Positions 15,254 through 24,708 of a stretch of DNA of 25,174 nucleotides are shown one piece after another. The notes below the pieces were generated by a model. It had not been told where the DNA came from. It worked only from the letters and a program-made list of their open reading frames with translations, and searched no databases. The DNA is from Promethearchaeia archaeon (GTDB lineage Archaea > Asgardarchaeota > Lokiarchaeia > Sigyniarchaeales > SOKP01): assembly GCA_029856105.1 (NCBI GenBank), contig JAHQWH010000158.1:1-25174 (forward strand), given 5' to 3'. The translations under genes were made by a program, and so were the position numbers. Positions within the stretch are counted from its first letter, which is position 1, and each line of letters starts with the position of its first letter.

Positions 15254-16045
15254 TTAAATACCGATATCCCACTTTAGAAAAGAATACGGAAAGAATTTTT
15301 CTTGTTCTAATTCTGCTACTACATATCCCTTTTTCATAGAGTTATCTCCCTTTAAATACGCAGCACCTAATATTCTTACCACCTCTATTTCGCCCCAAGG
15401 ATCGCTCTCAGATGACCTTAATGTAATTTCTGCGTTCCCCAGTTTTAATTCCTTAGGTCTTAATAGAACCTCTTCTCTTATTAACCGCGGGTTGTAATCA
15501 AAACCCTCACCATCTGGAGAAGGAAAGTGCTTAAAATTATATATTACTGTCACAATTTCAGAGCCATCACCAATTGTGCCAGTAAAAAGCTCCATAGCAT
15601 CAGGTGCATTTAATCGACCGTTCAGTTTTGCCTTCACTTCGAAATATCGCGTTCCTTGGCGCTCTATCCATCCTTCAACGATTCTCTTTTCGCGTTTAAG
15701 ATAGAGATCTGCCATTTTTTTTGGATATCCAAATACTTCTCGACCAGCGACTAACGCTTGGTCGTCTGTAACTGGCATCGATAGGCAATAGCTTCCTTCT
15801 ACACCGTCATATTCTGCACTTAAAAAAAGAGCGCCTTCGTTATATGTCACTCCGAAATTTGTTTTAGGATAATAAGCGATAAACGCGTTAGCAATTGGAG
15901 TGCTTGTAGGTTTTAACGGTGGCGGCAGCAATCGTTTTATTATTTCGGGTTTTGTCTCCCAATAGACGACCAGCATTTCTGCGTCGTAGAAGTCAGCGGT
16001 TTCTCTTTTAGTCATAAACCCGCCCGAAGATCTTAAAAAACTCGT
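15254..16045 (-). CDS. Acetoacetate decarboxylase-like (ADC superfamily) protein, copy 2; probable ACG start (ATG 16015 is the alternative)
   Basis: LLPPPL, YNEG, GREVFGYPKK Schiff-base Lys motif. The frame extends to ACG-AGT-TTT-TTA-AGA-TCT, 7 nt after GAGGTGA. Confidence 0.85.
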   Translation of the reverse strand, partial: TSFLRSSGGFMTKRETADFYDAEMLVVYWETKPEIIKRLLPPPLKPTSTPIANAFIAYYPKTNFGVTYNEGALFLSAEYDGVEGSYCLSMPVTDDQALVAGREVFGYPKKMADLYLKREKRIVEGWIERQGTRYFEVKAKLNGRLNAPDAMELFTGTIGDGSEIVTVIYNFKHFPSPDGEGFDYNPRLIREEVLLRPKELKLGNAEITLRSSESDPWGEIEVVRILGAAYLKGDNSMKKGYVVAELEQEKFFPYSFLKWDIGI

Positions 16046-16132
16046 TTTATTTTCACCTCAAATTAGATTTTTACTGATACTATTATTAATATTTCAATTT
16101 TTAATTTAATATTACTGGATTGATTATTTATT

Positions 16133-17347
16133 TTATGACAATGCTTGATCTATTAGTTCCATGAGATCAACCATCTTAATATTTGAATTTAAAGCGGTTA
16201 TTGCATCCATTAGATTTCTATAACAAAACGGACATATACTCACAAGATAATCTGCGCCAGTCTCCTCAGCTTCCTGAACTCTAGTCTTAGCAACTTCTAA
16301 TGCTAAATCGGGAAAGCCTTTCTTTACGCCTCCCCCAGCTCCGCAACATTTAGCGTTCTCTTTAATCGTTTTCATCTCGGTCAAATTAGATATTTTTGAT
16401 AGTATCTCTCTTGGTTCTTCGTAAATCGGTGAAAGGCCAGAATTTCTTCCTGTATGACAGGGGTCGTGATAGGTCGTATTAATTTCTAAATTCTTAAGAG
16501 TTATATCTTTTTCCTCTAAAAAAGATTTAATATACTCGATTGTATGAAGCACTTTAATTTCTATGTCCTCAATAAAGTCAGCGTAGTCTATTTTTAAAGT
16601 CCTGTAACAACCTGCGCAACTCGTAATTATAGTTTTAACGCCACTTTTTTTGAATAACTCGTAGTTTTTCACAGCCACTGAATTGAATGTTTTCATATCC
16701 CCAGTTCTCTTACCTACGCTTCCGCAACATACTTCATGTTCTCCAAAAATAGAAAAATCAACTCCAAGTTTACGAAGTACTTTTGCTGTGTTTATAGCTA
16801 CTGGTTGAATTTCTGGAGTTAGAGCAGCAGTGCATCCAACAAAATAAAGCACATCCGCTTTTTCAGAATAGGCATTTTTTACCTTAAAATCAAGTTTTTC
16901 AATCCAATTACTTTTCTCTTTATTATCTCTCTGATATGGATTTAATAAATCAACCATTGCCTGATTCATTGGTATGTGTGCTTCCAGACCACAACCCGCG
17001 TCTATTAATTCTGCTCTTAAAGCCTCGTAAATAGTTGCGTTATCCATATCATAGGCGCAAGCTTCAGAGCACGCGTTACAAGTTGGACATTGATAAATTA
17101 CTTCAGCCATATCTTTGCTCAGCTCTAATTTTCCTTGCCAAAGAGAGCGAATAATTTGCATTTTTCCTCTTCCAAAGAAAGCTTCAAAGCCAGATGTGTG
17201 ATCTCTTGCCACGCAAACGCCCCATTTTTGGGGATCTGAAGTATAATCTGTAGCTTCTCGACAATCTCCACAACTGATACATTGTAAAATTGTCGGACCG
17301 ATTTTGCTTAAATGTTTAAACTTTTCGTTAGGATTTATTTCAGTCAT
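16133..17347 (-). CDS. Fe-S oxidoreductase with N-terminal 4Fe-4S motifs and two CCG domains (GlcF/HdrD-like)
   Basis: CISCGDC, CPTCNACSEAC, YFVGC, EVCCG, TSCAGC, YHDPCH, CCGAGGG, SICPFC. Confidence 0.92.
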   Translation of the reverse strand: MTEINPNEKFKHLSKIGPTILQCISCGDCREATDYTSDPQKWGVCVARDHTSGFEAFFGRGKMQIIRSLWQGKLELSKDMAEVIYQCPTCNACSEACAYDMDNATIYEALRAELIDAGCGLEAHIPMNQAMVDLLNPYQRDNKEKSNWIEKLDFKVKNAYSEKADVLYFVGCTAALTPEIQPVAINTAKVLRKLGVDFSIFGEHEVCCGSVGKRTGDMKTFNSVAVKNYELFKKSGVKTIITSCAGCYRTLKIDYADFIEDIEIKVLHTIEYIKSFLEEKDITLKNLEINTTYHDPCHTGRNSGLSPIYEEPREILSKISNLTEMKTIKENAKCCGAGGGVKKGFPDLALEVAKTRVQEAEETGADYLVSICPFCYRNLMDAITALNSNIKMVDLMELIDQALS

Positions 17348-17358
17348 ATTATTTCCAT

Positions 17359-18894
17359 CTACTCTTTATTTTTAATAATATTTTGTGTTATATCGTTATC
17401 GTAACTATACATATGAAATTTATTTGGAGACAATAAAAAATCAGGGTCTACAACCCTTTTCATATCTTTAAATAATCGTAGAAATTCGGGAGTATAAGCG
17501 TTGGCTTCTACTATTGATTGAGAGATCGATTCTCCTAACCAATAATGTACACCTCCATACTGAACCTGATATATTACCTTTTTATGCCATATATCCATAG
17601 CGACTTGACGCTGATCATCTACATTTTCGGCATTAAAACCACCAGCAAAAATACAATGACCATTAGGTAATAAATGGATTGATCTGGCGAATAACGAAAA
17701 ACTTTGAGCCGGGAAATTACCTGTATTTTCGTTATCAAACAACTCGTTTAACTCTTTCTTATCTGCTATTGATGAAATTGGGATTTTATGACAAGTTGTA
17801 CATGATATCTTAGGAGGCGCTAACGAGATGAATTTGTTAAAATAGCTATAGGGAAACTTAAAATCGAACTTCCAGTCCTTAGCTAATTTTAAATCTAGAT
17901 CGATTTCTGTCCATTCAAAAGGTCTTGCAACATTATCTTTAGTCATTATTCTATTTACTTGTTCAATATAGACGTCCAAAATTCGCTCGTCAAACGCTTC
18001 AAGTATAAACATAAAAACAGGTCCACTAAGTCTAGCTCTTTTTGGAGGTCGGATTTTAGCTTGGGAAGCTAAGAGTTGTACTACTACGCGTGGGTTTATA
18101 TAAAGATCGTGTATTCCGTCTTTAACTTCTTTTTGTAGTTCATACATTAATTCAAAAACTTTATTGTAATCGTCTTTTTTCAGTATGTAATTCTTCTGTA
18201 TCTTATAAGGCGAATTAGGGAATAACCTTAAAGAACATTTAGTTTTAATGCCCATAGTTCCGGCATCTCCCATAAATAGCCCCGTAAAATCGGGAGCAAC
18301 GCCGTACCTACAAAAAGGTTTTGAGTACTTATTAGCTGCAGCCCCAGTCCAAATTATCGTGCCTTGTGGATTTAGTAATACCACCTCAACACCTAAACAA
18401 ATGTTTGGAACTAAACCATATTTAGTGGACCCAAAACCAGCGGTGCTGTTAGAAAGCCCTCCTCCAATTGTTGCTGAAAATCCACTTCCGGGACCGAGTA
18501 CTCCTGTCGTTAAATCTTTTTTGTATAGTTCTGATAGTAAAGCCCCCCAGGTTACTCCACATTCTACCTCACAATAGAAATCCTTTTCATTTATTTCAAT
18601 AATTTTATTCATCCGCGTAAGATCAATAAGGATTCCCCCTTCAATTGTCGCACCTCCAACTAAATCGGCCCCTCCTCCTCGCGGTACTATAGGAATTTTA
18701 TATTTATTAGCAATTTTTACAATATCTGAAACTTCTTCCGTATTCTCTGGACGTACTATAATATCAGCCCATCTATCAGGAAAGGCAGGATCAACGTTTC
18801 TAGAATAGGCAGCTTTCATAAAATCTTTATTAGTGATATATTCTGTTCCAACCGCTATTTCAATTTCTTTGTATACCTTATCAATTTTGGACAT
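17359..18894 (-). CDS. FAD-binding oxidoreductase (FAD_binding_4 / GlcD-VAO superfamily), copy 2
   Basis: IVRPENTEEVS, PRGGGADLVGG, IDLTRMNKI, ATIGG, FMGDAGTMGI, C-terminal KRVVDPDFLLSP. Confidence 0.92.
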   Translation of the reverse strand: MSKIDKVYKEIEIAVGTEYITNKDFMKAAYSRNVDPAFPDRWADIIVRPENTEEVSDIVKIANKYKIPIVPRGGGADLVGGATIEGGILIDLTRMNKIIEINEKDFYCEVECGVTWGALLSELYKKDLTTGVLGPGSGFSATIGGGLSNSTAGFGSTKYGLVPNICLGVEVVLLNPQGTIIWTGAAANKYSKPFCRYGVAPDFTGLFMGDAGTMGIKTKCSLRLFPNSPYKIQKNYILKKDDYNKVFELMYELQKEVKDGIHDLYINPRVVVQLLASQAKIRPPKRARLSGPVFMFILEAFDERILDVYIEQVNRIMTKDNVARPFEWTEIDLDLKLAKDWKFDFKFPYSYFNKFISLAPPKISCTTCHKIPISSIADKKELNELFDNENTGNFPAQSFSLFARSIHLLPNGHCIFAGGFNAENVDDQRQVAMDIWHKKVIYQVQYGGVHYWLGESISQSIVEANAYTPEFLRLFKDMKRVVDPDFLLSPNKFHMYSYDNDITQNIIKNKE

Positions 18895-18930
18895 GATTCA
18901 ATATTAACGAATAATAGATTTGTAATATAA

Positions 18931-19731
18931 TTAATACCAATCCCATTTGAGAAACGAATAGGGTAAAAAATCTGTTTGATCTACCTTAGCAACAACCTCT
19001 CCAGGAAGCATAGTATTGTCTGTTTTAAGATATAACGCGCCTAGTACCTTTACTACTTCAACTTCAGCCCATGGATCGTGCACAGTTGAGTTTAATTTTA
19101 TTTCTGCTACACCCATTTCCATTGATTTTGGACGAACCGAAGTTTCTTGCTTAACTAACCACGGATCGTAATCAAAACCCTTTTTATTAGGTGCTGGAAA
19201 GTACTTGAAGTTATAATTAATCGTATTTCTCTTTCTTCCCGGAAGAAGACCCAACTCTTTTATGATACTTGGCGTTTCGCTATCGTTGAATTTACCGGTT
19301 AATTTTACTTTAATTTCAATATTCTTAACTCCAAGACGCTCAGACCAAGCTTCAACATCTTTATCCTTTCGATGAAAATGTATTTTAGCTATTTTTTTGG
19401 GGAATCCAAAAATCTCCCGACCTCCAATCATCGCTCGATCGTCGTCAACGGGCATAGCTAAGTAATAATTTCCCTGTAAGCCATTATATTCACATCTTAA
19501 CGTCAAAGCACCTTCAAAATACGGTAATCCTTGATTGGTACTAGGGTAATTTGCTATAAATGACATAACTACGGGTCTACTAACAGGCTTTAAAGGAGGG
19601 GGTAAAATCTTTTCGACTATCTCAGGTTTAGTTTCCCATAAAACGGTTATCATTTCAGCACTTTTAAATACGCTCGTCCTTAACCTTTCTTTTCTCTCTT
19701 CTATCTCTTTTATTGAACGCTTAAAACTAAT
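18931..19731 (-). CDS. Acetoacetate decarboxylase-like (ADC superfamily) protein, copy 1; probable ATT start
   Basis: ILPPPL, YFEG, GREIFGFPKK. The frame extends 26 codons upstream of ATG 19653 to ATT-AGT-TTT-AAG-CGT-TCA, 6 nt after AGGTGA. Confidence 0.85.
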   Translation of the reverse strand: MSFKRSIKEIEERKERLRTSVFKSAEMITVLWETKPEIVEKILPPPLKPVSRPVVMSFIANYPSTNQGLPYFEGALTLRCEYNGLQGNYYLAMPVDDDRAMIGGREIFGFPKKIAKIHFHRKDKDVEAWSERLGVKNIEIKVKLTGKFNDSETPSIIKELGLLPGRKRNTINYNFKYFPAPNKKGFDYDPWLVKQETSVRPKSMEMGVAEIKLNSTVHDPWAEVEVVKVLGALYLKTDNTMLPGEVVAKVDQTDFLPYSFLKWDWY

Positions 19732-19741
19732 TTTAAATCAC

Positions 19742-21277
19742 CTAATTTTCCTCTTTTACAAAATGTTCTGATAAATCGTGATCATAACTATACATGTGAA
19801 ACTTTTTTGGACTTAACAAGTAATTTGGATCTACAGCTTTTTTCATATCTTTGAAAAATTGAATAAATCCAGGCGTATAGGCATTAGCTTCAACTATAGA
19901 TTGAGAGATTGCTTCTCCAAGCCAATAATGTACGCCTCCATATCGTACTTGAAGACGTAGCTTTTTGTGCCACATTTTCATGGATTTTTCGCGTTGTTCA
20001 TCTATGTTATCGGCATTGAATCCACCTACAACTACACAATTACCGTTAGGTAAAAGAAATATAACTGTTGCAAATAATGCAACACTTTGTGGTGGATATT
20101 CATCCCGGTAGTTAATATCAAATTGATCGCTTAAATTTGCTACTTTATGTAAAGCAGAAATTGGAACTTTATGACAAGTGGTACACGATATTTTCGGCGG
20201 GGCTACCGATATAAATTTATTAAAGTAGTGATAGGCATATTTTAAATTAAATTCCCAATCTTTGGATAGAGGCGCTTCTGGATCAATTTCTTGCCATTCA
20301 AACGTTCGAGCATCGTCTTTCATAAGATTTTCAATTTGTTCAAGGTAAACATCTAGCACCCGCTCATCTGTAGATTCCACCAATATCGAAAAAACCGGCC
20401 CTTTTAATCTCGGTCTTTTAACTGGTTTATTTTCCACCATACCTGCCATTAATTGAACTACAACAATAGGAATTACAAGTACATCGTGTAATCCGTCCCG
20501 TACTTCTTTCCGTAATTTATACAAGAGCTCAGAAACTTTATTATAATCGTTCTTCTTTAACATGTAATATCGCTGCGCTTTAAACGGTGTCTCGGGATGC
20601 AATCGTAGGAAAGCTTTAGTCTTAATACCCATAGTTCCTACATCCCCCATAAATAATCCCGTAAAATCGGGAGCCACCCCATATCTACAAAAAGGCTCTG
20701 CGTATTTATTAGCTGCTGCTCCTGTCCTAATTATCGTTCCTTGTGGATTTGGTAAAACTACTTCGACACCTAAACAAATGTCAGGAATAACACCGTATTT
20801 TGTGGATCCAAAACCAGCAGTACTATTAGAAAGGCCCCCTCCGATAGTAGCAGAATAACCGCTCCCAGGACCGAGTACTCCTGTTGTTAAACCTTGTTTT
20901 TGTAATTCCGATAGCAACTCACCCCATGTTATTCCACATTCTACCTCGCAATAGTAATCCTTTTCATTGATTTCAATAATTTTATTCATTCGCGTAAGAT
21001 CAATTAGGATCCCCCCTTCGCTTACAGACCCCCCTACGAGATCTGCGCCACCACCTCTCGGAATCATTGGGATTTTGTACTTATTAGCGATTTTTACGAT
21101 TTCAGAGACCTCTTCAGATGATTCTGGCCTCACTATAATATCTGCCCATCTATCTGGAAACGCCGGGTCAACATTTCGAGAATATGCCGCCTTCATAAAA
21201 TCTTTGTCTGATATAAAATCGGAACCGATTATTCCCTCTATTTCCTTATACGCATCCTTTACTTTTGACATTATCAT
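19742..21277 (-). CDS. FAD-binding oxidoreductase (FAD_binding_4 / GlcD-VAO superfamily), copy 1
   Basis: Same motifs as 17359-18894, with long near-identical blocks (KDFMKAAYSRNVDPAFPDRWADIIVRPE; FCRYGVAPDFTGLFMGD). The start may be ATG 21271. Confidence 0.92.
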   Translation of the reverse strand: MIMSKVKDAYKEIEGIIGSDFISDKDFMKAAYSRNVDPAFPDRWADIIVRPESSEEVSEIVKIANKYKIPMIPRGGGADLVGGSVSEGGILIDLTRMNKIIEINEKDYYCEVECGITWGELLSELQKQGLTTGVLGPGSGYSATIGGGLSNSTAGFGSTKYGVIPDICLGVEVVLPNPQGTIIRTGAAANKYAEPFCRYGVAPDFTGLFMGDVGTMGIKTKAFLRLHPETPFKAQRYYMLKKNDYNKVSELLYKLRKEVRDGLHDVLVIPIVVVQLMAGMVENKPVKRPRLKGPVFSILVESTDERVLDVYLEQIENLMKDDARTFEWQEIDPEAPLSKDWEFNLKYAYHYFNKFISVAPPKISCTTCHKVPISALHKVANLSDQFDINYRDEYPPQSVALFATVIFLLPNGNCVVVGGFNADNIDEQREKSMKMWHKKLRLQVRYGGVHYWLGEAISQSIVEANAYTPGFIQFFKDMKKAVDPNYLLSPKKFHMYSYDHDLSEHFVKEEN

Positions 21278-21326
21278 CTATTATAAGATAGAACTTGTGA
21301 ATTAATAAAAGTATATGAAAAAAAAA

Positions 21327-22112
21327 TTATTTTAATTTCTTGACTCGTTTAGCTATTTTCTTTTTAACATCTTCGTAAGAAGGCGGGGGTCCAGTTCTAA
21401 TCTCCTTCTCGTCAATAAAAAGCGCATCAGCAATTCCCCACTCCAAAAAAGTCTCCCTATTGAATGTATCTATTTCTGTGAAAACTACTTTATCTCCAAA
21501 TTCGGAAGCTGCTCTTTTTGCTCTTTCAAAAACTATATTTTGAGCAGGGCACCAGCCATTTATAAACGAAGTCACTGATACCTTCCCTGGTATTTTTTTG
21601 GGCTTTTTTTTCTGCCTTATCATTTTAGGCGGAATAGCATCGTTGGAAAAAGGTTTCCATAGTAAAACGCTTATACTCTGCTTATCAACTTTAACATATC
21701 CTTGCTTTTTAAACCAAGAAGCTCTCATAAAAACGGGTATAGAAAGCCCCCATGCTACTAATCCTTTCGCACCCTTACCCCTTACATCCTCTTCAGCAGC
21801 TCTTATTAAAGCCTTACCAATTCCTTTCTTCTGGAAGTTTCCAACTCCTTCTTTGTAGCCGTGTACCCAGATACAATTTATAAAGTATAAATTATCGCCT
21901 TCTGCGGTTGAATATTCAAGAGGAACGTATTGTATCATTCCCACTACTTTGTCGTCCTCAGTCACAGCAATTTTAACTCCAAGCCCTTTGTCTTTCATTT
22001 TATTATACCAAAGCTCCTTGTGATCCCCTGCTTCTTTCATCTCGTCGCTCCAATCTTCAAGACACATAAAATAAAGTCCGTTATATTTTTCCTCTAAATC
22101 AATTATTTTCGT
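21327..22112 (-). CDS. GNAT acetyltransferase with a C-terminal thioredoxin-like (YoaP-like) domain; probable ACG start
   Basis: Acetyl-CoA motif FQKKGIGKALI, FINCIWV, WFKKQGY; C-terminal GWCP. The frame extends 15 codons upstream of ATG 22067 to ACG-AAA-ATA-ATT-GAT-TTA. Confidence 0.85.
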   Translation of the reverse strand, partial: TKIIDLEEKYNGLYFMCLEDWSDEMKEAGDHKELWYNKMKDKGLGVKIAVTEDDKVVGMIQYVPLEYSTAEGDNLYFINCIWVHGYKEGVGNFQKKGIGKALIRAAEEDVRGKGAKGLVAWGLSIPVFMRASWFKKQGYVKVDKQSISVLLWKPFSNDAIPPKMIRQKKKPKKIPGKVSVTSFINGWCPAQNIVFERAKRAASEFGDKVVFTEIDTFNRETFLEWGIADALFIDEKEIRTGPPPSYEDVKKKIAKRVKKLK

Positions 22113-23375: not shown

Positions 23376-24708
23376 GCAAAAGAAAACACGTTCCTTTAGG
23401 GAAGTGATGAATTTTGCATCATTAAAAGTTGAACCTCTTCTTCTTTAAATATAAAAAAATAATAGATTAACCAATGCAACTCGTTCGACAAGTTCAATTC
23501 AAACGCTCGAAATTATTGGACGAGATCACTTTTCTTTCAAAAAACTTGTTTAACGTCGCCACCTACACGGTTCGACAACGATTCTTCGTGGATCGTCATT
23601 GGACTCGATATAACGAGTTATGGCGATTGTTAAAATCACACAAGGCGTATAAAAAGCTTCAAGAGATGTGCGGTTCTCATCCACCACAACAAGTCTTAAA
23701 GCAAGTAGATCGAAACTTCAAGAGTTTTTTTAAAGCAATTAAAATGTGGAAAAAAGAACCATCTAAATTTCAAGGAATGCCAAGGCTCCCCCATTACAAG
23801 CGTAAGAATGGTCGTAATTTGGCCTATTTCACTTCATTACAATGTAGGTTGAATGAAGGTTTTGTTTTACTCACGAAAAAGATGGAAAGATTAGGCTTTC
23901 CGAAAATAAAAACGGATCTCGAAAATGTAAAAGGAGTTCGCATCGTTCCTTTCGGGGATCGATATAACGTCGAATTGATCTACGACTACGAACCACTAGA
24001 CTTGTACTTGAACGAGGATAACATGTTAGGGATCGATTTAGGACTTAACAACATCGTAACTGCGTCAGATAACGTTGGAAATAATCCATTGATTATCAAG
24101 GGCGGTGTCGTGAAGTCGATCAATCAATTCTATAACAAGCAATTAGCCAAATACAAATCGTTAAGCAAGATTTGTAACGACACCGAATTGACTAAACGCA
24201 TCTTGAAACTTCATCGAAAGCGAAACAATAAAATTAGAGATTTTTTCCACAAAACTTCGAGAAAAGTAGTCAATCACTGCATTTCTAACGATATAGGGAC
24301 GATAATCATCGGGTATAACGAGGGTTGGAAACAGAAAGTTAAGATCGGCAAGAAAAACAACCAAAACTTCGTGTCAATACCTTTTCTAAAACTTGTCCGA
24401 CAAATCGAATACAAGTCCGAGATGGTCGGAATTAAAGTAGTGAGAATCACCGAAGAATATACTTCGCAAACTTGCTCTTCGTGTGGAGTCGTTCGCAAGT
24501 CAAACCGCAAGTATCGCGGTCTATACGCGTGTAAAGATTGCGGGTTAGTATTAAACGCCGATGTGAACGCTTCAAGAAACATGATACAAAAAGGAGTCCC
24601 TGAGTCCAAGTGGTTAGGGGATAGAGGATGTTTGAACCATCCATTAGTGTTAAAAGTTTAAAGACTCTTAACCTACGAATCCAAGCCCTTTAGAGCGTGG
24701 TAGTTCAA
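23376..24708 (+). mobile_element. IS200/IS605-family (IS1341-like) element carrying only tnpB
   Basis: Left hairpin CACGTTCC-TTTA-GGGAAGTG (23387-23406) inside GCAAAA/TTTTGC arms. Right hairpin CCAAGCCC-TTTA-GAGCGTGG (24681-24700) followed by TTCAA (to 24708). No tnpA. The left boundary is approximate. Confidence 0.78.
23474..24661 (+). CDS. tnpB: RNA-guided endonuclease TnpB
   Basis: RuvC-I GIDLG, DFFHKTSR, EEYTSQTCSSCG and CKDCG zinc finger, RuvC-III NADVNASRN; intact 395-aa ORF. Confidence 0.93.
   Translation: MQLVRQVQFKRSKLLDEITFLSKNLFNVATYTVRQRFFVDRHWTRYNELWRLLKSHKAYKKLQEMCGSHPPQQVLKQVDRNFKSFFKAIKMWKKEPSKFQGMPRLPHYKRKNGRNLAYFTSLQCRLNEGFVLLTKKMERLGFPKIKTDLENVKGVRIVPFGDRYNVELIYDYEPLDLYLNEDNMLGIDLGLNNIVTASDNVGNNPLIIKGGVVKSINQFYNKQLAKYKSLSKICNDTELTKRILKLHRKRNNKIRDFFHKTSRKVVNHCISNDIGTIIIGYNEGWKQKVKIGKKNNQNFVSIPFLKLVRQIEYKSEMVGIKVVRITEEYTSQTCSSCGVVRKSNRKYRGLYACKDCGLVLNADVNASRNMIQKGVPESKWLGDRGCLNHPLVLKV

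Follow-up and report, generated by a model that had tools for sequence, protein, structure and literature searches.

Proposed AUU and ACG start codons of two ADC-family genes in a Lokiarchaeial gene cluster

Introduction

Initiation at AUU behind a Shine-Dalgarno (SD) sequence is known from bacteria, where infC (encoding IF3) and pcnB of Escherichia coli are rare, regulated single cases policed by IF3. In plant organelles, ACG start codons require C-to-U editing of the mRNA to AUG. Here we describe two paralogous ADC-family genes, copy 1 (18931..19731, minus strand) and copy 2 (15254..16045, minus strand), on contig JAHQWH010000158.1 of the metagenome-assembled genome of a Promethearchaeia archaeon of the class Lokiarchaeia (GCA_029856105.1). 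The whole analysed stretch, positions 1 to 25,174 of this contig, is referred to as the window. Comparison of sequences indicates that both genes are probably translated from near-cognate codons, AUU in copy 1 and ACG in copy 2.

Eukaryotic ribosomes initiate at the near-cognate codons CUG, ACG, AUU and GUG (PMC5666671), and the factors that check the codon are homologous between eukaryotes and archaea, namely eIF1/aIF1, eIF1A/aIF1A and eIF2/aIF2 (PMC6412873, PMC7531240). GUG and UUG are the standard permitted archaeal alternatives to AUG (PMC4705826). The aIF1 of S. solfataricus is reported to discriminate against non-canonical starts (cited in PMC6237735). Lokiarchaea have few SD sites (PMC7531240, PMC12993045). 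A full-text search, with most subscription-journal papers outside its reach, found no literature on Asgard archaea starting translation at AUU, AUA, AUC or ACG.

As in infC and pcnB, the near-cognate AUU of copy 1 stands behind an SD sequence, would be read by the initiator tRNA and marks the beginning of a conserved N-terminus. The setting differs in that the organism is an archaeon with aIF1, aIF1A and aIF2, that such codons appear to be common, at about one fifth of SD-led genes, and that they open genes for ordinary enzymes and for uS4, swapping freely with ATG among relatives and with no evident autoregulatory logic. Autoregulation of the infC type was considered and rejected, the products being ADC-family enzymes and not initiation factors. 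Eukaryotic near-cognate starts share the pairing of Met-tRNAi with one mismatch, ACG and AUU being among the accepted codons; they are, however, reached by scanning, depend on Kozak context and usually give minor isoforms or upstream open reading frames, whereas the codons described here would be positioned by SD pairing and are apparently the main or only starts. Archaeal GUG and UUG starts likewise demonstrate that archaeal ribosomes accept codons other than AUG, and both are used in the source genome too (TTG 31, GTG 12), but their mismatch lies at the first base whereas that of AUU, AUA, AUC and ACG lies at the third or second. The ACG starts of plant organelles resemble that of copy 2 in that a genomic ACG occupies a conserved Met-1 position, yet editing cannot account for the ATT, ATA and ATC cases found here.

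Results

The 5' end of copy 1

Start regions were read from the minus strand. That of copy 1 runs TGA (19740-19738) TTT AAA ATT (19731-19729) AGT TTT AAG CGT TCA and that of copy 2 runs TGA (16060-16058) GGT GAA AAT AAA ACG (16045-16043) AGT TTT TTA AGA TCT, the letters of both ends being those reported in the initial annotation. The peptide that it had found in both copies, x-S-F-x-R-S followed later by F..AEM..V.WETKPEI, was seen again. The likeness goes beyond chance, as x falls exactly on the ATG of orthologues and neither F3 nor F22 varies among 47 aligned homologues.

The proposed ATT (AUU) start codon of copy 1 (19729..19731, minus strand) is preceded by the SD sequence AGGTGAT (19737..19743, minus strand). 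Archaeal small-subunit rRNA is present in genomes of the same genus (1458 bits, top family in its clan), and the 16S 3' end of one of these, G017, is GGAUCACCUCCU; the full SD complement is therefore AGGAGGUGAUCC. AGGTGAT complements this 3' end with a duplex energy of -11.1 kcal/mol. The spacer from GGTGA to ATT is 6 nt, which equals the modal spacing of SD-led ATG genes. The reading frame is shut by TGA two codons before ATT, with an additional TAA further upstream. ATG, GTG and TTG are absent from the frame until codon 27, where the Met of the AEM motif (19651..19653, minus strand) is encoded by the sole in-frame ATG; as had been stated initially, this internal codon is the ATG chosen in the open reading frame track. 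It is also the start used in public annotations, and the resulting 240-aa form of copy 1 is recorded in NCBI, JGI and ENA.

The ATT of copy 1 aligned on the ATG of 13 copy-1-type orthologues. Copy-1 orthologues align from residue 1 at 58-96% identity and begin (M/I)SFKRS. Selection on the segment between ATT and Met27 was assessed in seven orthologues with ATT (or GTT), all of which have an in-frame stop 2-4 codons before that codon and lack a canonical start. Over codons 2-27 the proportion of synonymous differences (pS) was 0.46-0.96 and the ratio of nonsynonymous to synonymous differences (pN/pS) 0.15-0.58, against a pN/pS of 0.13-0.40 in the remaining gene, and these codons were free of indels and stops in all seven.

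An AlphaFold 2 (AF2) model of copy 1, calculated from a 47-sequence alignment (pLDDT 91.5), has a helix at residues 7-16 and a strand at residues 20-33. Met27 lies within the predicted strand, and a protein starting at Met27 would therefore lose the helix and have strand 1 cut. In solved ADC structures the position aligned with F22 is preceded by 26-37 residues. We consider the annotated 240-aa protein wrong, and the case for initiation of copy 1 at AUU is close to the strongest that sequence comparison can give.

In the copy-1 orthologue of genome G144 (L037:1153-1155) the start position is occupied by GTT, two mismatches from AUG, in the order GGTGA ATA TTA GTT AGT TTT. The frame of this orthologue is closed two codons upstream of GTT, and the sole other candidate is the ATA right behind the SD.

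The 5' end of copy 2

The proposed ACG start codon of copy 2 (16043..16045, minus strand) follows the SD sequence GAGGTGA (16053..16059, minus strand) at a distance of 7 nt, and the duplex of this SD with the anti-SD has an energy of -11.5 kcal/mol. The frame is closed by a TGA four codons ahead of ACG, with no ATG, GTG or TTG between, and ACG is the sole near-cognate codon from that TGA (16058-16060) to Met11. The codon for Met11 (16013..16015, minus strand) is an internal ATG that was absent from the initial annotation. It is the start used by open reading frame callers, with a 253-aa form on record, and is a possible second start. The SD is 37 nt from this ATG, and is therefore too distant to serve it.

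ACG aligned on the ATG of eight orthologues and the TTG of two. Those starting with ATG begin MSFLR(E/D/T)SGGFM, which the ACG AGT TTT TTA AGA of the window matches codon for codon. Met11 is replaced by Ile in G099 and G107, the orthologues that start at TTG, and is kept in most others. ACG itself is found in six genomes of close relatives and in three contigs from metagenomes. Three single-base changes have occurred within this clade in the nine codons that precede Met11, namely GGC>GGT, GGC>GGA and GGG>GGA, all synonymous at the third position; one further change, TCT>GAT, falls at a codon that is variable everywhere. The synonymous pattern points to translation from ACG. We regard ACG initiation of copy 2 as likely and well supported, though less certain than the ATT start of copy 1.

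Homologues and Shine-Dalgarno pairing

Full-length ADC homologues, 59 in number, were collected from 154 genomes of the same order and their 5' ends were read. Immediately ahead of the invariant S/G-F, 35 have ATG, 12 ATT, seven ACG, three TTG, one GTT and one ATC. The N-termini thus read M-S-F or M-G-F from exactly the proposed codon, the arrangement that the initial annotation had expected of homologues. Other paralogues begin MGFVKTPEEL, and more distant metagenome homologues begin MGFVK or MSFVK at an ATG behind an SD. Among the 21 non-canonical homologues, 18 have an in-frame TGA or TAG 2-4 codons upstream and lack a canonical start.

The start position was mapped onto a maximum-likelihood tree calculated with the first residue left out. 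Changes between ATG and non-ATG numbered at least 12, with eight for ATT (at least seven of them forced by well-supported branches) and two for ACG. The codon has therefore flipped repeatedly between ATG and weaker codons.

SD duplex energies were calculated for the 20 nt before the start against the anti-SD, with near-copies collapsed. The median was -9.3 kcal/mol for non-canonical homologues (n = 12) and -4.75 kcal/mol for ATG homologues (n = 30; Mann-Whitney p 7e-6).

A distant ADC paralogue in another genus (L064, genome G064) has an independent ACG-AGT-TTT at the start position with ATT ATT directly before it. Any of the three codons in ATT ATT ACG might start translation there.

Other near-cognate starts in the genome

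The source assembly comprises 3.66 Mb in 238 contigs with 31.9% G+C and is 92% complete with 6% contamination. For a genome-wide census, any 5-mer of GGAGGTGAT was used as anchor with a candidate codon 5-8 nt downstream. Frames of at least 150 codons were counted if they were closed within 15 codons upstream and if a canonical start was absent both upstream and within 5 codons downstream. Control codons that are not near-cognate opened such frames in 40 of 43809 cases. ATG opened 131 frames, TTG 31, GTG 12, CTG three and ATC three. ATT opened 26 (odds ratio 12, p 4e-17), ATA 15 (odds ratio 9.7, p 1e-9) and ACG five (odds ratio 11.5, p 1e-4). Near-cognate codons thus appear to start about a fifth of the SD-led long genes in this genome. 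The scarcity of SD sites is borne out by the same census, which contains just about 130 long ATG genes with an SD.

Several individual genes make a convincing case. A GTPase gene reads ATA-KILLFGPGGAGKT, and a start at its next ATG would drop the P-loop. The start of uS4 (MGDPRR) in 14 genomes of the genus is ATC in six, ATA in three and ATG in five. Each of the nine non-ATG starts follows AAGGTGA, five of them with an in-frame stop 1-2 codons upstream. In the source genome the uS4 start is ATC (contig C7, 10804-10806), and in every sampled genome of other genera in which uS4 has an MGDPR-type N-terminus the start is ATG.

Two further genes carry ACG on a conserved Met-1 codon. In the GNAT gene that belongs to the cluster described below, 6 nt separate AGGAGAGTGA from ACG (22112-22110), and a TGA stands two codons ahead of this ACG. 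Twenty relatives have ATG or TTG at the corresponding position (M[KEQ]II[DN]LEEKY), and the internal Met16 chosen as start by open reading frame callers is V, L or C in some relatives. An AOR-like gene (contig C194, 96621) has ACG where more than 20 relatives show ATG (MDWxGYTGNIL). ATA sits one codon upstream, and for that reason the start is ambiguous between ACG and AUA. In the AOR-like gene of genome G145 a new ATG stands immediately ahead of ACG.

The initiator tRNA was sought with ARAGORN, which found no tRNA-Met in the source assembly; it returned seven tRNA genes when run without intron search and 22 with it. Most tRNA genes are probably interrupted, and tRNA-Met was probably missed because of introns. 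A pattern search located a single canonical initiator anticodon arm, GGGCTCATAACCC, with anticodon CAU on the minus strand of contig C34. The T-arm region of this gene appears to contain an insertion. The pattern search found no initiator-like arm in which the anticodon was a different NAU triplet, although this 92% complete genome may hold other tRNAs.

Accuracy of both start codons

The start codons of both genes were compared with independent assemblies and read sets, which carry ATT and ACG and not ATG, the outcome on which the initial annotation had staked its reading of the letters. The same ATT is present in the same-genus assemblies G005, G009, G017 and G131, and the same ACG in those four and in G140. 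Contigs assembled from three DNA runs of three studies cover 16043-16045 without difference, and those of run X4 cover 19729-19731 likewise; a contig of X8 differs at two letters over copy 1. The stretch was found in runs from ten studies of marine or subsurface sediment. Contigs from an RNA library, belonging to a relative at about 95%, cover both start codons; these are a weak indication of transcription and do not address initiation.

The gene cluster

The cluster lies on the minus strand. Its first gene encodes a GNAT acetyltransferase (21327..22112; PF00583), apparently starting at ACG (22110-22112). This is followed by a FAD_binding_4 (GlcD-like) gene (19742..21277; PF01565, E 3.8e-41), by copy 1 (266 codons plus stop counted from ATT; PF06314, 182.3 bits), by a second FAD_binding_4 (GlcD-like) gene (17359..18894; PF01565, E 4.3e-39) with a partial glcD match, by a gene for a CCG/4Fe-4S protein of the GlcF/HdrD/TfrB-like type (16133..17347; PF02754, E 1.5e-38; NF004898 222 bits, under its cut-off) and, after an AT-rich spacer of 87 nt, by copy 2 (263 codons plus stop counted from ACG; PF06314, 182.8 bits). 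Both ADC scores are far over the curated cut-off of 29.8 bits, and the two copies are about 50% identical. For both 511-aa flavoproteins, FAD_binding_4 was the sole match among Pfam domains.

The ADC-family proteins share with the solved ADCs (PDB 3bh2, 3bgt, 3c8w) the GREIFGFPKK stretch, which aligns with theirs, and an N-terminal segment preceding strand 1. Similarity to the solved proteins is, however, only about E 1e-12 over residues 22-120. Within the GREIFGFPKK stretch, R105, E106, G109, P111, K112 and K113 are invariant in the 47 homologues. P111, K112 and K113 align with the FPKK of 3bgt and 3c8w, so that the lysine pair of G-F-P-K-K is kept; we take a lysine of this pair to be the Schiff-base residue of the ADC family. 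The ADC genes are clustered with GlcD-like flavoproteins, a CCG iron-sulfur protein and a GNAT protein, and their substrate therefore need not be acetoacetate.

The region 15254-22112 resembles a duplicated module, with a GlcD-like flavoprotein and an ADC-like protein present twice and the GlcF/HdrD-like iron-sulfur protein and the GNAT protein once. In run X4, one low-depth contig (3.5x, 40-nt side, 22 foreign letters between) links 18738 to 21138 and omits 2399 nt, approximately one FAD-ADC repeat unit. The junction may represent a strain with a single unit or a chimera of the paralogous FAD genes. A gene for a TnpB-type RNA-guided endonuclease (23474-24661, plus strand; NF040570, 217 bits) adjoins the cluster.

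Discussion

The initial annotation had proposed non-AUG initiation at a homologous position in the two copies, and this proposal is supported by the ATG codons of orthologues, by purifying selection on the peptide downstream and by an SD at working distance. Under the mechanism that we propose, the 7-nt SD would pair with the 3' end of 16S rRNA and set the P site of the small subunit 6-7 nt downstream. The ordinary initiator Met-tRNA, with anticodon CAU, would then pair with one mismatch, at the third base for AUU and at the second for ACG, and the resulting proteins would start Met-Ser-Phe like their orthologues. The weak codon would be offset by the strong SD.

Translation could instead begin at the downstream ATGs, at Met27 of copy 1 (19653) and Met11 of copy 2 (16015), with the upstream SF.. 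peptide an untranslated relic of a lost ATG. Gene callers do yield the 240-aa and 253-aa proteins, Met11 is retained in most copy-2 orthologues, and the rarity of SD sites in the genome means that SD-less starts clearly exist. For copy 1, however, the relic would consist of 26 codons under purifying selection at saturated synonymous divergence, with all of the lineages bearing ATT; it would include both invariant phenylalanines, and Met27 would lie inside predicted strand 1. The downstream reading of this copy is essentially excluded. For copy 2, the position of the SD 7 nt before ACG but 37 nt before ATG, the Ile at position 11 in G099 and G107 and the synonymous changes of the ACG clade argue in the same direction, and Met11 is more plausibly the start of a second isoform than the sole start. 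Taken over both genes, this explanation is unlikely. Still less probable is that the AUU of copy 1 is used only through termination-reinitiation, a ribosome that ends at the TAG of the FAD gene 10 nt upstream restarting without a full codon check. The SD of copy 1 does overlap that TAG (19744-19742), as the initial annotation had noted in suggesting translational coupling, and gaps of -5 to 12 nt are found in the clade of the source genome, in G021 and in G144. In the ATT orthologues of the G046 type, by contrast, the nearest upstream same-strand open reading frame ends 51, 69, 75, 84 or 105 nt away or none was found, copy 2 is preceded by its 87-nt spacer, and uS4 and the further genes with AUH starts are not all coupled. 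Coupling may contribute at copy 1 yet is not required for use of its ATT; of the earlier suggestion, the overlap stands and the need for coupling does not.

Sequencing or assembly error, a pseudogene, or fusion of FAD and ADC proteins through frameshift or readthrough could in principle produce the same picture, given a metagenome-assembled genome with contamination and an FAD stop only 10 nt from the ADC start. Identical letters in several independent genomes and in contigs of three studies, together with purifying selection along the entire gene, leave an artefact or decay with a negligible chance. Fusion was rejected since the frame relation varies among orthologues (gaps of 10, 1, -5, 12 and 51-105 nt), and the ADC frame is moreover closed upstream by TGA and TAA. 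Initiation at AUU and ACG by the ordinary initiator tRNA has several points weighing against it. The ACG of copy 2 and those of the GNAT and AOR-like genes might be turned into AUG by C-to-U editing of the mRNA, since ACG lies exactly on the conserved Met-1 codon in three genes and one deamination would give AUG; we know of no mRNA C-to-U editing in archaea, the far commoner ATT, ATA and ATC cases would be left unexplained, and we hold this to be very improbable. The ACG clade of copy 2 is shallow, and three synonymous changes plus one altered codon give thin support for selection on the first ten codons. The in-frame ATG ten codons past ACG may be the sole or a second start of that gene. A JGI protein in the 90% cluster of copy 2, P0023 (263 aa), is recorded as starting MSFLRSS with M at the ACG position. 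It may be an allele with a canonical start, an ATG allele then coexisting with ACG, or the product of a gene caller that accepted ACG; a scan of metagenomes gave three close loci, each of which has ACG and differs from P0023. With phylogeny controlled, the association of a strong SD with a weak codon is reduced to a trend, phylogenetically independent pairs agreeing in five cases, opposing in none and tying in four (p 0.06), a number that is too small for adequate power. No 16S gene was found in the source assembly, and the anti-SD was borrowed from the same-genus genome G017. Finally, initiation at AUU and ACG, the use of Met-tRNAi and the role of the SD as enabling factor are what we infer from sequence comparison.

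As a mechanism, near-cognate initiation is of a known kind; the novelty appears to lie in how often it is used, in its serving as the main start of ordinary as well as essential genes, and in its presence in an Asgard lineage. On balance we lean towards a Lokiarchaeia family with relaxed start choice, in which AUU, AUA, AUC, ACG and CUG would be regular starts of about one fifth of SD-led genes including the essential uS4, which would drift freely into AUG and back while SD strength compensates.

Standard gene callers accept solely ATG, GTG and TTG, and public records consequently list 240-aa and 253-aa enzymes that would be truncated; in the annotated copy 1 the predicted helix is missing, as is half of strand 1. 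If the same is true for a fifth of SD-led genes, structure prediction and comparisons of 'eukaryotic signature proteins' would draw on many Asgard proteins with wrong N-termini. The ADC family serves as a clean natural experiment, in which a single codon has switched between ATG and weaker codons on at least 12 occasions, with a stronger SD accompanying the weaker codons. If relaxed start choice is true, the checkpoint formed by aIF1, aIF1A, aIF2 and the initiator tRNA would be set differently in a close relative of eukaryotes. A lineage so near to them, with AUU, AUA, AUC and ACG as main starts even for uS4, would then be a natural system in which to learn what sets the stringency of that checkpoint.

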